Origin: a virus
Direction: 5' to 3' (one strand)
Virus record (IMG/VR): IMGVR_UViG_3300027969_000074
Coordinates: 25,058 to 89,057 of that record
DNA length: 64,000 nt
The notes beneath the pieces are model-generated. The model did not search any database. It was given only the letters and a program-made list of their open reading frames with translations, and was not told the origin of the DNA. Shown piece after piece: positions 27,656-64,000 of the stretch. The first letter of the stretch is position 1; each line of letters opens with the position of its first letter. Made by a program: the position numbers and the translations under genes.

Positions 27656-30430
27656 CTATATTAGAATTGTCTTTAACTTTTCAATTACCTGATCAGCAGT
27701 GATTAATTTTGAACATTCAAATTGACGAGGTGTACCTTTTTGATCTGGGCACCAATTCCAATCACCAGCATTAAGCCTTAATCGGTTTGCGCAACCTGAA
27801 CAAGCTCCAGTAGGTGCAGCTAATTTAATAATACCGCCATCTGGTTCATTATAGGGTTCAGTAAAACCGGAAATTTGAATACTTGGAGTATTTGTTGCCC
27901 AAGCTAACCAAGTCAATCCACTGCTGATTCCAATAAAAGCAGCGCATTCAGTTAATTCAGTAATTACTCGGTCAATTGTACCTGCTTCAAATTTAGAGGC
28001 TCCAACCGGATTACGATTTCCCATATAACCATCTTCTTCTCTAGATAAAATTACAGGTTCATAACAATTTGCAATTAACCAATCTGTAACTTCTTGCCAG
28101 CCGGTTGGATTATTCCAGTATTTGGCTTGAGCAGTACTATGAATTCCGAGGCCTACTTTTTTCTTAACTACTGGACCAGTTGGGTGATTTATTAGAGGTT
28201 TAATCTCTTTATAGTCTAATCCTAAAATATCGGTTGCAGTTCTTTGCAATGGACCTAATTTAAAATCTCTAGGATTTTTTTCACGGTCAATATTATCTCC
28301 ATTATGGAACCAACCAAGTCGGTACATTGCATGTAAATTAGTTACCATTTGGCCAGGTTCAATGAATTCAATATTCGGATAAGTATCTTTAAATAGTTGA
28401 TTCCAAAAAGTTGAACAGATCATAATACAATCGTGCTTCTTTCTAAATTCTTCAACATATGGAAACCATGCTAAGGTATCACCTAGTGCTTTTGACTCTA
28501 ATGGAATATAGACACGTTTACCTTTTAGGTCAGTATTAAATATTATTACAGGATTTCCACTTTGGTCCTTAACTTTAATTTTCCAATCTTTAAAATATTT
28601 GATTGAGCTTTTTGCCCAAGTTCCGCCGCTTAATTTTGTTGAATAAACTAATTTGTCAGTTTCATTATCAATAAACTCTACCTGATATTTCATTGGGCTT
28701 GTAGTTTTCAATTCAACAAATGGACCGTCTACTAAATTATGATTTACCGTAGGCAGTGGCTGAACTCCATCAATTGTTACATGATTCATTTTTGCAAAAG
28801 TTTGGAAATCCTCGCTTAAGAATTGAGTGAACGCACATTTACCTAAATAATTAACAGTTACTGTATAGCCTTTACGATATTCGCCTAATTTAATAAGTAG
28901 AAAGTCTCCCTTTTTAAGAGTCGTAAATTGTACAGTTCCATTGTATTTAATTTCAAGTAGGTAATCTTTGGTTGCAGGTTCATCATGAAATCCTGAAACA
29001 AGTTGCACATATAAATTATTAAAATCGTCTGCTGCTGTATAAATTTGAAATTTAGCGTCATCTCTTAGGATACCGTCTCTATTCCAAACGGCTTGAGTAT
29101 TTAATTCATTTGAATTTGCAATATAATTAGTTAACCAAATGTCCTTTGCGTGTTTTTCTAAATAGTGCAGGAATACTCTTTCTAACTGCCAACCGTTTGG
29201 GCGACCCATGAAATATTCCTTTTTTGTCTTTACTTCATTTATAATATTTAGAGCAACCTCAGTTTTAATTGAGAAAATAAAGGTTGCCATAAATTTAGCT
29301 AGGTGAGTATCCTTTGCTGAACCTGAGTGGTATTCATAAATTACTGCATCATGCTGGTGAGCTCTTTCCAAAAAAGCTTGGCGATATTGAAAAGTATCAA
29401 GCAGATTATCGTATTCCATAAAGTGAATCATCTTCTTTCCTAGATACTTACAGAAATTAAATGCATGAGTCATTGATCTCCAAATTGCATAATCATGATG
29501 ATATTCCATTTGATTATCTACTCTAGTTTTTCCAAATGTGCACCATCTTCCGCTACCAACTGCATATTCTCCAAATTCAGAATTTAATAGCAATGGATTT
29601 TCTTTATCGTATATGTAATAGTCAACTAATTTCTGAATTTCAGGTTTGATTGCATAATGTGAAACTAATAAAATCGGAATTCCTGAAAATTCTCTAAGCT
29701 TTTTAATACATTCAATTAAGTCTGATTCTTTTTCTGGAGTATTTGGCCAAGTGTCAACAACAAAAATATCATCCGGATATTCATTCGGTCTGATTATTGA
29801 AGGTCTGTTATCCGCTGAATATTTTATATCATTTGCAATTCCACCTTTAACCCCAAAGAAGTAAATATCTGAATGTATATTTTGCATGTCTGGATTTTGC
29901 CATTCATGATTATAGCTACCATATGAACCGTATTCAAATATTCCATCTGGAAAAGCGGTTTCAAATCCATTAATTTTTAAAAAATCGTCAGCTTCAAGAT
30001 TTTTATAATAATCAGCCCATTCGCTTGATTGTTGGATTAATAGAGGAGCATCCATTTCTCCACGTCTTCTAGTTCCATGTTCAGGACGTTGACCTGATGC
30101 ACAAGTAAAAATAAACATTCCACCTGGCTTTAACATACGAATTATATTTTGAATAGTAGTTTCATAATATAGATCATGTTCAAATACTTCAGTTGAAATA
30201 ATTACATCAAAATAGTCAGATGGCGCATCATATAGATTGCCTGGGGCTATTACATCAACATTAGCACCATCGCCAACATCTAATCCAATATAGTTACAAT
30301 TATCAAATAGAAAACGGTTATTTCCATTAATGTCAAGCGATCCAATATCTAATACTTTTTTATTTTGGAAGTATTTTGGAAAATTTAATTTGATCTTTTT
30401 ACAAAAATCTTGCTGTTCTTTATGTGCCAT
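27656..30430 (-). CDS. Fusion: class I methyltransferase + central GT-A-like region + TibC/Aah-type protein O-heptosyltransferase
   Basis: N-terminal VLDIGSLDING...STEVFEHD. C-terminal ~365 aa: SSIKYFKDWKI, ALGDTLAWFPYVEEFRKKH, STAQAKYWNNPTGW, FIGISSGLTWLAWA, ISGFT, CSGC...WCP...FECSKLIT. Confidence 0.85.
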   Translation of the reverse strand: MAHKEQQDFCKKIKLNFPKYFQNKKVLDIGSLDINGNNRFLFDNCNYIGLDVGDGANVDVIAPGNLYDAPSDYFDVIISTEVFEHDLYYETTIQNIIRMLKPGGMFIFTCASGQRPEHGTRRRGEMDAPLLIQQSSEWADYYKNLEADDFLKINGFETAFPDGIFEYGSYGSYNHEWQNPDMQNIHSDIYFFGVKGGIANDIKYSADNRPSIIRPNEYPDDIFVVDTWPNTPEKESDLIECIKKLREFSGIPILLVSHYAIKPEIQKLVDYYIYDKENPLLLNSEFGEYAVGSGRWCTFGKTRVDNQMEYHHDYAIWRSMTHAFNFCKYLGKKMIHFMEYDNLLDTFQYRQAFLERAHQHDAVIYEYHSGSAKDTHLAKFMATFIFSIKTEVALNIINEVKTKKEYFMGRPNGWQLERVFLHYLEKHAKDIWLTNYIANSNELNTQAVWNRDGILRDDAKFQIYTAADDFNNLYVQLVSGFHDEPATKDYLLEIKYNGTVQFTTLKKGDFLLIKLGEYRKGYTVTVNYLGKCAFTQFLSEDFQTFAKMNHVTIDGVQPLPTVNHNLVDGPFVELKTTSPMKYQVEFIDNETDKLVYSTKLSGGTWAKSSIKYFKDWKIKVKDQSGNPVIIFNTDLKGKRVYIPLESKALGDTLAWFPYVEEFRKKHDCIMICSTFWNQLFKDTYPNIEFIEPGQMVTNLHAMYRLGWFHNGDNIDREKNPRDFKLGPLQRTATDILGLDYKEIKPLINHPTGPVVKKKVGLGIHSTAQAKYWNNPTGWQEVTDWLIANCYEPVILSREEDGYMGNRNPVGASKFEAGTIDRVITELTECAAFIGISSGLTWLAWATNTPSIQISGFTEPYNEPDGGIIKLAAPTGACSGCANRLRLNAGDWNWCPDQKGTPRQFECSKLITADQVIEKLKTILI

Positions 30431-30433
30431 TTA

Positions 30434-31066
30434 TTATAATTTATTTTTTAAAAACTCGTATACACTAATTAAGTTTAAGTAGAGGCCACGTTCATTGTTA
30501 AATTTATTGTACTCATAGTATGGATTGTCAAAATCGCAACATTCTTGAAAACCGTGTTTAATAATACCAACGCCCCAATCTGTATCAATTGTAAAAATTT
30601 CAAGATCTGGTCTGGTTGCTCGATACTTATATATTGCTTTCCAAACGGTTCCATTCCAATTACCTTCAGCTGGAGTAGAGTGATCGTAAAAATCTTCCCG
30701 AGCATGATGAATTGTTGGTGGATTACAGTCGTGTAAAACAATATAGCCATTTGGACTAAGATGAGCTAGCGAATTTTCAATATCTCGTTCAACTTGGTCA
30801 GATTCATGCAGGCCATCAATAAAAATAATATCCCATTTATAATTAGGGTCTAAATTTAATTCAGAATCTCTTAATGACCTAAAGAATTGGTCAGATGTCT
30901 GTTTATAGTCGATTTGAGCATCAACTTCAAAACATGGATCAACTGAATGTTTTGTATTAATATTAATTAAGTTAAAGCAGTCATTAGGTTCTCTAACTCC
31001 AATTTCTAAATATTTGGTAAACCCATTTTTTAGAATTAATTCATTTATTATATCGTATCTTTGCAT
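30434..31066 (-). CDS. Class I SAM methyltransferase (Methyltransf_24-like)
   Basis: YLEIGV, WDIIFIDGLH, GYIVLHDCNP, WNGTVWKA motifs; likely start MQRYD at 31066. Confidence 0.85.
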   Translation of the reverse strand: MQRYDIINELILKNGFTKYLEIGVREPNDCFNLININTKHSVDPCFEVDAQIDYKQTSDQFFRSLRDSELNLDPNYKWDIIFIDGLHESDQVERDIENSLAHLSPNGYIVLHDCNPPTIHHAREDFYDHSTPAEGNWNGTVWKAIYKYRATRPDLEIFTIDTDWGVGIIKHGFQECCDFDNPYYEYNKFNNERGLYLNLISVYEFLKNKL

Positions 31067-63298: not shown

Positions 63299-63337
63299 AC
63301 TAAATTATACTAAATAAATTAGCAGAGTTTAGGTAAA

Positions 63338-64000
63338 TTAACGTCTTGTTGTAGTTGTAGTAGTTTCACCAATTACGCAATTCCAAGTGGTTCGGTCAAA
63401 TGTACAACTTCCGTTAATAGTGGGAATATTAAGCTCTGGATTTGGTGTATAACTAGCTAAACATATATTATTAAGTGTAGTAAATGGTGCAATCTCCGCC
63501 ATTTGTGGATTACCATCACAATCTACATAATTAAAGTTATTTGGTGTAGGCATTGGATTTTCAATTGAGGTACACATACAAGGAATGGCAGTTGTTGTAG
63601 TTGTAGTAATTTCTCCAGCAGTCGTTGTACTAGTAGTTGCAGCCTCAGTGGTTGTAGTTGTTGTCGGAGCAGCAGTGGTTGTAGTTGTGGTAGTAGCAGG
63701 ATCAGCCGTTGTAGTTGTGGTAGTAGGGACCTCTCTAGTGGTTGTAGTCGTAGTTCCTCCAGCAACTCTATTCCAAGACCCAGATCCTCCATCGAATTCA
63801 TAAGTAAATATGCATCCATTATCTAAAGTAATTACTAATAGCTTATTAGTAGCTAATGCTGTTCCAGGTAAAAAATCTGGTAAAGTACCAGATGCAATAG
63901 TTGCACCAGCTTGAGTAATCGTATAACCAGTTCCAGTAAAACCGCTTAAGTTTATATCAAATGGGCCCGGTCCATCAATCACCGCTAAGAAGCTTGAACA
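63338..64000 (-). CDS. Thr-rich mucin-like virion protein, 3' part (starts beyond window)
   Basis: Frame is open to 64000; poly-Thr blocks TTTTTT(R/A/E) and a small Cys-rich domain (CMC...YVDCDG...IC...C). Confidence 0.8.
   Translation of the reverse strand, partial: CSSFLAVIDGPGPFDINLSGFTGTGYTITQAGATIASGTLPDFLPGTALATNKLLVITLDNGCIFTYEFDGGSGSWNRVAGGTTTTTTREVPTTTTTTADPATTTTTTTAAPTTTTTTEAATTSTTTAGEITTTTTTAIPCMCTSIENPMPTPNNFNYVDCDGNPQMAEIAPFTTLNNICLASYTPNPELNIPTINGSCTFDRTTWNCVIGETTTTTTRR

Follow-up and report, generated by a model that had tools for sequence, protein, structure and literature searches.

The window analysed here is a 64,000-nucleotide (nt) stretch that makes up the final 64 kb of an 89,057-bp viral contig (IMG/VR record IMGVR_UViG_3300027969_000074), so that window position 64000 is the contig end. 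CheckV completeness of the contig was 33%, and complete relatives of the source phage are about 270 kb in length. The presence of genes for a large terminase, a baseplate wedge protein, a T4 gp15-like tail completion protein and a tail-tube-like protein in the window indicates a fragment of a jumbo contractile-tailed phage (jumbo myovirus); a sigma factor gene was also found. Twelve genes, all on the minus strand and either overlapping or separated by 3-112 nt, run from 64000 down to 27656 and form a candidate virion glycosylation locus, in which giant Ser/Thr-rich fibre genes stand beside genes for predicted glycosyltransferases (GTs) and methyltransferases. The minus-strand open reading frames (ORFs) that a first-pass annotation had listed were all present with the positions and lengths it had assigned. 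Starting from the contig end, and with protein lengths in amino acids (aa), the genes are as follows.

63338..64000, minus strand: C-terminal 220 codons of a poly-Thr 'mucin-like' protein, by translation; the 5' part lies beyond the contig end
62345..63298, minus strand: 317-aa predicted GT-A-fold glycosyltransferase, cytoplasmic (phrog_4417, E 6e-65; no Pfam match)
60646..62274, minus strand: 542-aa collagen-like fibre protein (114 Gly-X-Y residues; globular C-terminal part of 376 aa; Pfam Collagen, E 9e-14; tail-fibre PHROGs)
53341..60639, minus strand: 2432-aa Ser/Thr Gly-X-Y fibre protein, four tracts totalling 1,917 repeat residues and separated by ~120-aa globular inserts
43681..53259, minus strand: 3192-aa Ser/Thr Gly-X-Y fibre protein, 2,331 repeat residues, including the longest tract of the locus
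35604..43568, minus strand: 2654-aa Ser/Thr Gly-X-Y fibre protein, 2,082 repeat residues
34914..35600, minus strand: 228-aa protein, no Pfam or PHROG match
34655..34963, minus strand: 102-aa protein, no significant family match
31779..34589, minus strand: 936-aa fusion of a GT4 domain (~110-395), a probable GT-A domain with WxDGD (~400-745) and an FkbM methyltransferase (~758-916), from Pfam, NCBIfam and PHROG 2170
31074..31769, minus strand: 231-aa class I S-adenosylmethionine (SAM) methyltransferase (Methyltransf_24)
30434..31126, minus strand: 230-aa class I SAM methyltransferase (Methyltransf_24); the TTG listed as its start overlaps the preceding gene, and the true start may be further in
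27656..30430, minus strand: 924-aa fusion of a SAM methyltransferase (1-170), a middle fold (~215-555) and a TibC/Aah-family (BAHT) domain (566-922)

Counting runs of at least eight triplets, the four Gly-X-Y proteins together contain 6,444 repeat residues, 3,651 of which are Ser or Thr, in agreement with an initial estimate of ~6,400 repeat residues and several thousand Ser/Thr. Among the 2,148 triplets, Thr and Ser occupy 50% and 44% of the X positions, while Ser, Asn and Asp occupy 73%, 15% and 6% of the Y positions, respectively, resulting in a Ser/Thr share of about 85% for X and Y overall (94% for X and 76% for Y). The Gly-X-Y periodicity is unbroken within tracts, the longest of which spans 1,284 residues (428 triplets), and the Pfam Collagen model matched all four proteins with E values down to 1.5e-45. 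Helix stabilisers at the X and Y positions (proline/hydroxyproline or charge pairs) were not found across the 6,444 repeat residues except for a single Pro. The tracts are interrupted by globular inserts of ~110-150 aa, and the 3192-aa protein starts with a DUF5122 beta-propeller (Pfam, six repeats, E 1e-63). An intramolecular chaperone of the Peptidase_S74 type (Pfam PF13884, E 6.9e-16), a domain typical of phage tail fibres and spikes, forms the C-terminus of the 2654-aa protein and was not found in the other three Gly-X-Y proteins. Plus-strand ORFs of up to 1,194 codons within the Gly-X-Y genes (36256-60470, for example 39739-43305) were rejected as genes, being shadow frames of the repeat codons. 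Out-of-frame queries from the repeat region still retrieved related repeat DNA, although in most of the loci so obtained the giant ORF took up the sequence or a contig end broke it off.

The C-terminal domain of the 924-aa fusion resembles TibC over its length. Residues 580-915 matched TibC residues 39-379 (PDB 4rap, E 9e-52), and the NCBIfam model TIGR04414 (equivalog hepto_Aah_TibC) was matched over positions 16-374 of 374 with 265.3 bits against a cut-off of 200. In TibC, Asp110 is the catalytic base, Thr226, Lys230 and Trp305 make phosphate and sugar contacts, a beta-hairpin thumb (Phe265/Val266) holds a ring dodecamer together, and four cysteines form a 1Fe-0S iron finger (Yao et al. 2014, PMC4358343). 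With residue roles taken from that work, conservation was checked across 44 distinct phage homologues. The counterparts of the catalytic and contact residues (D651, T766, K770 and W841, respectively) were invariant in 44/44 sequences, and so were, at the level of sequence, C877, C880, C894 and C906, corresponding to iron-finger Cys339, 342, 358 and 370. TibC position 300 is Ser in all phage homologues, as in Aah, and the thumb keeps a conserved hydrophobic tip (Tyr-Met) in a hairpin three residues shorter than that of TibC. Judged by its sequence, the domain is a true member of the BAHT family. Characterised members of this family glycosylate protein serines, and TibA is modified by TibC when both are co-expressed in E. 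coli (PMC4358343).

The N-terminal part of the same protein is a SAM methyltransferase of PHROG 32762 (E 5e-45), so that of the methyltransferase-GT-TibC/Aah fusion suggested at first, both ends stood, while the middle domain is discussed below. Similarly, the GT4 and FkbM domains of the proposed GT4-GT-A-FkbM fusion were recovered with Pfam and NCBIfam models, with only weak leads for its middle part, and the two stand-alone methyltransferases were confirmed. The 228-aa and 102-aa proteins had been taken for small fibre proteins, an assignment that could not be kept given that neither matches a family; homologues of the former (30-58% identity) adjoin Gly-X-Y genes in two other loci (L003 and L046), and the latter is 48-83% identical in relatives.

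The TibC-like gene keeps company with Gly-X-Y genes well beyond this window. IMG/VR yielded 243 TibC-like matches, of which 80 loci, equivalent to 36 clusters at 90% identity, were analysed, and a Gly-X-Y ORF was counted if it had at least 60 repeat residues in the analysed flanks. Such an ORF was present in the flanks of 26 of the 36 clusters and, for clusters with a locus of at least 15 kb, within 10 kb of the TibC-like gene in 22 of 26. By contrast, it was present in 1 of 22 control loci, which were tail-module loci of related jumbo phages found via the 317-aa gene at <63% identity (Fisher p ~1e-8, ignoring shared ancestry). Nearly all linked Gly-X-Y ORFs contain 50-64% Ser/Thr, with a maximum possible value of 67%. 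The pairing was kept at 37-50% identity and across different fusion architectures; in the complete genome G006, a stand-alone 400-aa TibC-like enzyme is paired with a Gly-X-Y ORF found by direct translation. The tailoring enzymes of the fibre module vary between phages, with methyltransferases in the source phage; in phage G005 (L169, G005:C1, 6208-14040), the 2,049-codon Gly-X-Y gene and the gene for a 959-aa TibC-like fusion instead enclose genes for a sulfotransferase (PF13469, E 4e-16) and a member of the GT9 heptosyltransferase family (E 1e-13).

The association extends to a cultured phage and to bacterial contigs. In Microcystis phage Mel-JY01 (L002, PP395634.1), a Gly-Thr-Ser frame lies just upstream of a fusion with GT4, middle and TibC-like parts, as a 1,016-codon collagen-like open frame (2-3049, plus strand) that is unannotated in GenBank. 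This frame continues without a stop to the very first base of the record, so that the gene may extend across the record ends. The minus-strand 'hypothetical proteins' annotated over it (1-651 and 739-2298) look like shadow frames. Several TibC-like homologues at 46-50% identity on bacterial contigs (Methylococcales, Burkholderiaceae) adjoin short Ser/Thr Gly-X-Y ORFs: in four loci (L213, L223, L224 and L226) the distance from the TibC-like gene to the start of such an ORF, 63-117 repeat residues in size, is no more than ~250 nt, and in a further one (L214) two short Gly-X-Y ORFs lie 0.3-5.5 kb from it, the TibC-like genes of these five being 46-48% identical to the phage domain. Homologues at ~35% identity (Selenomonadaceae, Acidisphaera) adjoin large Gly-rich proteins.

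At the other end of the locus, the 317-aa protein belongs to PHROG 4417, a family of >2,100 clusters at 90% identity and 960 representatives at 50% identity. Its AlphaFold2 model (pLDDT 95) was placed by Foldseek and VIA nearest to retaining GT-A enzymes of the GT8, GT24 and GT77 families, with Z 13.1-14.1 to 6mw8, 3u2t, 6fsn, 1g9r, 5gvv and 7ui6 over 210-240 residues; the close fold neighbours comprise Skp1 alpha-GalT, glycogenin, UGGT, LgtC, WbbM, GlyE and LARGE1. Other GT-A families gave Z 12.0 or less, mostly 10-11, and the capsid GT of PBCV-1 (2p6w) was among the matches with Z 10.3. The segment H105-D106-S107-D108, containing the DxD motif, is invariant in 37 sequences. On the strength of the model, the protein is a GT-A fold of the GT8 clan, although the Pfam Glyco_transf_8 model did not match it. 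The SGT1 (GT96)/HPAT (GT95) identity given to it by the first-pass annotation could not be supported: no match to Pfam HPAT (PF23452) was obtained at E up to 10 for the protein itself or at E up to 0.01 for 40 distant PHROG 4417 relatives, and HPAT/SGT1 structures were not among its PDB sequence or fold matches. The HPAT link came solely from a language-model neighbour cluster, 10% of whose members carry HPAT. The 40 distant relatives are often fused to a second GT (GT2, GT6, GT7C, GT25 or GT61), a radical-SAM domain or Methyltransf_24.

Because the window ends with the contig, the Thr-rich mucin-like gene preceding this enzyme is represented here by a C-terminal stub, Thr-rich as had been described but far from complete. 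The homologous frame in a 97%-identical relative (L083) has 1,108 codons and 30% Thr, with a globular N-terminal part of ~460 residues followed by (P)TTTTT repeats between small Cys-containing domains. An ORF was classed as Thr-rich if a 30-residue window anywhere in it contained 12 or more Thr. By this measure, the ORF immediately upstream of the GT-A gene, on the same strand, was Thr-rich in 34 of 41 clusters, compared with 23 of 489 for other ORFs with a minimum length of 150 codons (p ~2e-31, again ignoring shared ancestry).

PHROG 4417 occurs in 77 cultured-phage records, and a poly-Thr tract, usually at the extreme C-terminus, was present in the upstream gene product in 11 of 13 cultured phages sampled, from Chryseobacterium, Enterococcus, Staphylococcus, Lactobacillus, Lactococcus and Clostridium hosts; VPE25 and bIL285 were the exceptions. 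The upstream products with poly-Thr are as follows.

Enterococcus phage phiFL1A: major tail protein gp50
Staphylococcus phages RQ1 and PG-2021_68: major tail protein ending in a Thr run, then an overlapping ORF with 41-48% Thr in another frame
Lactobacillus phage iLp84: major capsid protein ending in a Thr run, then, after a gap of ~120 nt, a separate 34%-Thr ORF
Lacticaseibacillus phage R3.3: 306-aa protein
Clostridium phage phiCTP1: gp18
Lactococcus phage 1706: major structural protein
Lactobacillus phage 521B: Ig-like protein
Lactobacillus phages Lpa804 and LP65 and Chryseobacterium phage MA9V-3: poly-Thr upstream product

Given that these upstream proteins come from different families, the constant feature is the poly-Thr tract itself. 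The same pairing of a GT-A gene with a poly-Thr tract recurs in many unrelated phages, where the tract usually forms the C-terminus of a major tail, capsid or decoration protein, and in siphophages the PHROG 4417 gene lies between the major tail protein and tail-chaperone genes. The Thr-run loci of the RQ1, PG-2021_68 and iLp84 set are located at L173 3223-3925, L202 1632-2415 and L200 941-2488. In the two Staphylococcus phages, the overlapping ORF could be a programmed frameshift extension of the tail protein or a separate mucin-like protein.

Taken together, these results suggest, with a probability that we put at roughly 0.6, that the locus consists of two abutting enzyme-substrate modules, both of which would glycosylate virion proteins in the host cytoplasm prior to assembly. 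In module A (27656-62274), the three giant and one small Pro-free Gly-[Thr/Ser]-[Ser/Asn] fibre proteins would be the acceptors. The BAHT-family domain would add the first sugar to Ser/Thr hydroxyls, many times per rod, glycan extension would then fall to the GT4, GT-A-like and GT-A-fold domains and capping to the four methyltransferase domains. For module B (62345-64000), the proposed acceptors are the poly-Thr tracts in the product of the gene immediately upstream, to which the GT8-like GT-A enzyme would attach sugars. The substrates of BAHT enzymes are modified in the cytoplasm, prior to export, and phage particles are assembled in the same compartment, making the two-module model coherent. 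In Riftia cuticle collagen, sugars linked to Thr are reported to have a stabilising effect on the helix, and O-glycosylation also occurs in the collagen-like part of BclA, providing a rationale for a helix lacking proline. A farther-reaching statement is put forward tentatively and at clearly less than even odds. It holds that a phage clade of the ring-forming BAHT enzymes hyperglycosylates Pro-free collagen-like fibres at thousands of Ser/Thr, that the sugar would replace hydroxyproline in stabilising the helix and make a glycocalyx of fibres hundreds of nanometres long, and that PHROG 4417 is in addition a 'mucin-type' initiating transferase for poly-Thr tails.

Several points weigh against the two-module model. 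Glycosylation of the virion is itself predicted from genes, and a collagen triple helix in the Pro-free Gly-Thr-Ser tracts is only putative. The known acceptors of TibC/Aah are beta-helical autotransporter passengers, whereas the phage neighbour is a Gly-X-Y rod and the window contains no autotransporter. Within 10 kb of the TibC-like gene, no Gly-X-Y gene was found in 4 of the 26 clusters with long flanks, nor was one found near the second TibC-like copy in G006 and G007, and the two association tests share the disregard of common ancestry mentioned above. In addition, the middle domains of the two fusions are less well assigned than their ends. That of the 924-aa protein was modelled (pLDDT 80) as a nucleotide-diphospho-sugar-transferase fold followed by a beta-sandwich, with a flat list of fold matches (Z 12-14.5) equally near GT-A transferases and nucleotidyltransferases; a GT is plausible from the model, but it could be a nucleotidyltransferase instead. 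That of the 936-aa protein is a probable, weakly assigned GT-A domain by sequence, the leads being Mannosyl_trans3 (E 0.023), Skp1 alpha-GalT 6mw5 (E 0.063) and GT8 Atlas neighbours (0.88). Profile searches with both middle domains against PDB sequences returned nothing significant, and Pfam searches at E up to 10 with these domains and the 317-aa protein gave no usable match. Kinship of the 936-aa middle domain with the 317-aa family was rejected (hhalign probability 0.1%).

The donor sugar raises a further objection. Arg286 of TibC contacts adenine N1, is needed for activity and explains the use of an ADP-sugar (PMC4358343). The corresponding residue is Val822, in a column occupied by V, T, L, A or I in all 44 phage homologues, and the adjacent Arg821 is not conserved; the loss of Arg286 in all of them points to a changed donor. 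In the complete 271-kb relative G001, a family search did not find HldE (CTP_transf_like, PF01467) or GmhA (SIS_2, PF13580), and heptose-pathway genes were likewise not found when Pfam was run on the larger ORFs of two segments of the contig, namely the 25 kb preceding the window and the window's initial 2.9 kb, where only nucleic-acid-metabolism and other non-sugar families appeared. The chemistry may therefore differ from that of TibC. ADP-heptose is thus a doubtful donor for the phage enzyme, and the host could supply the donor. The jumbo phage G003, which combines a TibC-like gene with a Gly-X-Y gene of 2,455 codons, encodes a GmhA-like SIS_2 protein (E 1e-23) at G003:C1:88686-89024, on the contig of L062. 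Some relatives, such as G003, may supply part of the heptose pathway.

The gene order of the source phage raises the possibility that the locus encodes one integrated pathway instead, in which the Gly-X-Y fibres are the target of the GT-A and TibC-like enzymes alike, with one enzyme for priming and one for a further type of sugar, and with the poly-Thr protein as an extra substrate. In the source phage and in relatives at ≥63% identity, the GT-A gene indeed lies directly upstream of the first Gly-X-Y gene, and all genes are co-oriented. However, GT-A relatives at 43-62% identity have no Gly-X-Y gene within 10 kb and keep the poly-Thr neighbour, which is therefore retained with or without Gly-X-Y genes nearby, and small siphophages carry the GT-A gene and a poly-Thr tail protein without any Gly-X-Y gene. 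Conversely, the complete genomes G006 and G010 have the TibC/Gly-X-Y pairing without the GT-A gene, G010 lacking any 317-aa homologue, and in G005 both the GT-A gene and the TibC/Gly-X-Y pair are present but ~65 kb or more apart. We therefore consider a single pathway improbable. Because the conserved partner of the 317-aa enzyme is the poly-Thr protein and not the Gly-X-Y fibres, the initial view of giant fibres bracketed by two O-glycosyltransferases as one system gives way to a juxtaposition of two modules, and the co-occurrence with repeat genes foreseen for both enzymes was borne out for the TibC-like gene but, for the 317-aa type, did not extend below 63% identity.

An equally unlikely alternative accepts virion glycosylation but moves it to another acceptor, such as globular inserts or heads of the fibres, the tail tube, the sheath or the baseplate, leaving the Gly-X-Y tracts bare with their Ser/Thr serving solubility or flexibility. 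The known BAHT acceptors are structured strand-loop-strand motifs (NCBIfam name; PMC4358343), the fibres do have globular inserts of ~110-150 aa, and the enzyme block abuts the tail-tube gene. Against it, a Ser/Thr Gly-X-Y ORF is the constant neighbour of the TibC-like gene across divergent phages, whereas the other neighbours vary. Finally, a role in remodelling host surface glycans (lipopolysaccharide (LPS), capsule or S-layer) or phage DNA, for which one could cite the frequency of GT4, FkbM and Methyltransf_24 domains in polysaccharide pathways, the fact that DNA glucosylation and seroconversion are the most familiar roles of phage GTs (PMC12619734) and the thymidylate-synthase-like gene on the contig, is very improbable, given that the BAHT equivalog is a protein-serine transferase, that the genes lie within the late structural block and not among replication genes, that a separate candidate DNA-modification cluster exists at 5361-7615 (FkbM, HhH-GPD), and that siphophage GT-A genes have the tail-gene position described above.

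The glycosylation-gene block of the two-module model sits inside the tail/baseplate module of the phage, whose neighbouring genes are listed here.

27028..27645, minus strand: tail-tube-like gene (phrog_45 tail tube, E 2e-7), 10 nt downstream of the enzyme block
24799-25554: T4 gp15-like tail completion protein
22567-24261: baseplate wedge
19608-21578: large terminase

No minus-strand terminator was found within 26800-35800, and a sigma-70 promoter scan remained at background (49 matches against 43 expected). The motif TAGTATAAT occurs at 63304-63312 on the minus strand, 6 nt before the start of the 317-aa gene; with further copies at 784 and 7638, the window holds three against 0.87 expected, which is not significant (5/100 shuffles reach three copies). 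Away from the fibre locus, three close-packed minus-strand genes at 5361-7615 form a candidate DNA-modification cluster, one of them encoding a 354-aa protein without a family match and the other two being as follows.

6803-7615, minus strand: FkbM methyltransferase (E 8e-13)
6383-6802, minus strand: HhH-GPD base-excision glycosylase (E 2e-9)

A thymidylate-synthase-like gene of 432 aa lies on the same contig (L163:13932-15230) and may, together with this cluster, constitute a DNA-modification module apart from the fibre locus.

Near-identical DNA was present in lake and freshwater metagenomes from 13 studies; among the sequencing runs listed as containing it, none was of RNA. In a megablast search of 50,697 phage records, the enzyme block had no match. 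As to the host, Bacteroidota whose SusC/D systems might be baited by the fibres had been suggested at first, which is speculative; the source of the DNA is lake water, and fibre and TibC-like genes are paired in the same way in a cyanophage of Microcystis. Two contigs of 33% G+C assigned to bacterial metagenome-assembled genomes (MAGs), L206 (CAIWBA010000291.1, 254 kb, 'Bacteroidetes') and L208 (64 kb, 'uncultured Bacteroides sp.'), carry a phage-type enzyme block beside Gly-X-Y genes, and the TibC-like gene of L206 is 78% identical. Both look like phage genomes binned into bacterial MAGs, so that they give a weak hint at best of a Bacteroidota host; the closest cultured relative of the 317-aa GT-A enzyme, from a Chryseobacterium phage (41% identity), is likewise a weak host hint.

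Our results suggest, from gene content and neighbourhood, that many phages sugar-coat their particles via two recurring enzyme-substrate pairs. If this is correct, the BAHT family leaves its only known setting, the Gram-negative virulence autotransporters, and enters phage structural biology, while PHROG 4417 acquires a first candidate function. A predictive rule follows, by which a poly-Thr tail together with an adjacent GT-A gene marks a candidate glycosylated virion protein, and it covers cultured phages, including Enterococcus and Staphylococcus phages of therapeutic interest. If PHROG 4417 is the 'mucin-type' initiating transferase tentatively proposed above, many cultured phages of Enterococcus, Staphylococcus, Lactobacillus, Lactococcus, Clostridium and Bacteroidota would bear overlooked glycosylated tails or capsids. 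The two-module model also raises the structural question of whether a collagen helix without proline can be stabilised by glycosylation alone.

Collagen-like filaments that carry glycans already have precedents in Bacillus spores and giant viruses. On the particle surface, BclA of Bacillus anthracis and the fibrils of giant viruses display Gly-X-Thr-type repeats with O-linked, partly methylated sugars, and chloroviruses build their capsid glycan with virus-encoded multi-domain GT-GT-methyltransferase proteins. The repeats of BclA and the giant viruses contain proline, extend over tens to a few hundred residues and involve a different family of initiating enzyme, whereas the phage tracts are Pro-free and reach 1,284 residues. 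For the 317-aa protein, the nearest counterparts are protein-acting enzymes of the GT8 clan, such as glycogenin, Skp1 alpha-GalT, GlyE of serine-rich-repeat adhesins and UGGT, several enzymes of this clan acting on proteins or protein-linked glycans. It shares with them the fold (Z 13-14), the DxD motif and a cytoplasmic location, but differs in having no sequence match to the Pfam GT8 model or to any Pfam family.

The phage BAHT domain agrees with TibC/Aah (PMC4358343; TIGR04414) in its end-to-end sequence match, its catalytic and sugar contacts and its four iron-finger cysteines, as well as in being cytoplasmic and in its proposed role, which is to hyperglycosylate a long, Ser-rich surface protein that is built of repeats and encoded by an adjacent gene. 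Unlike TibC/Aah, it is fused to a methyltransferase and a GT-A-fold domain, lacks the adenine-reading Arg286, has a thumb hairpin shortened by three residues and comes with no heptose pathway in evidence. In the literature searched, no paper connected BAHT enzymes with phages or with fibres of the collagen type, or a GT with the poly-Thr tails of phage structural proteins. The claim of a new phage system does not extend to phage-encoded virion glycosylation as such, which is already described for mycobacteriophages (Freeman et al. 2023, as summarised in PMC12619734). According to that summary, glycans are reported at the C-termini of capsid and tail-tube subunits; virion glycans of mycobacteriophages are also reported to affect immune recognition. 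Nothing is known there of collagen-like fibres or BAHT enzymes, and the phages considered here (aquatic jumbo phages and phages of Firmicutes and Bacteroidota), for which glycosylation is predicted, have other hosts. Both systems place phage GT genes in or near the structural module, and here a GT gene stands beside a structural gene with a Ser/Thr-rich tail in 34/41 metagenomic clusters and 11/13 cultured phages. By analogy, the PHROG 4417 GT-A enzyme and the poly-Thr C-terminal tails of tail and capsid proteins thus look like a case of the same logic as in the mycobacteriophages.

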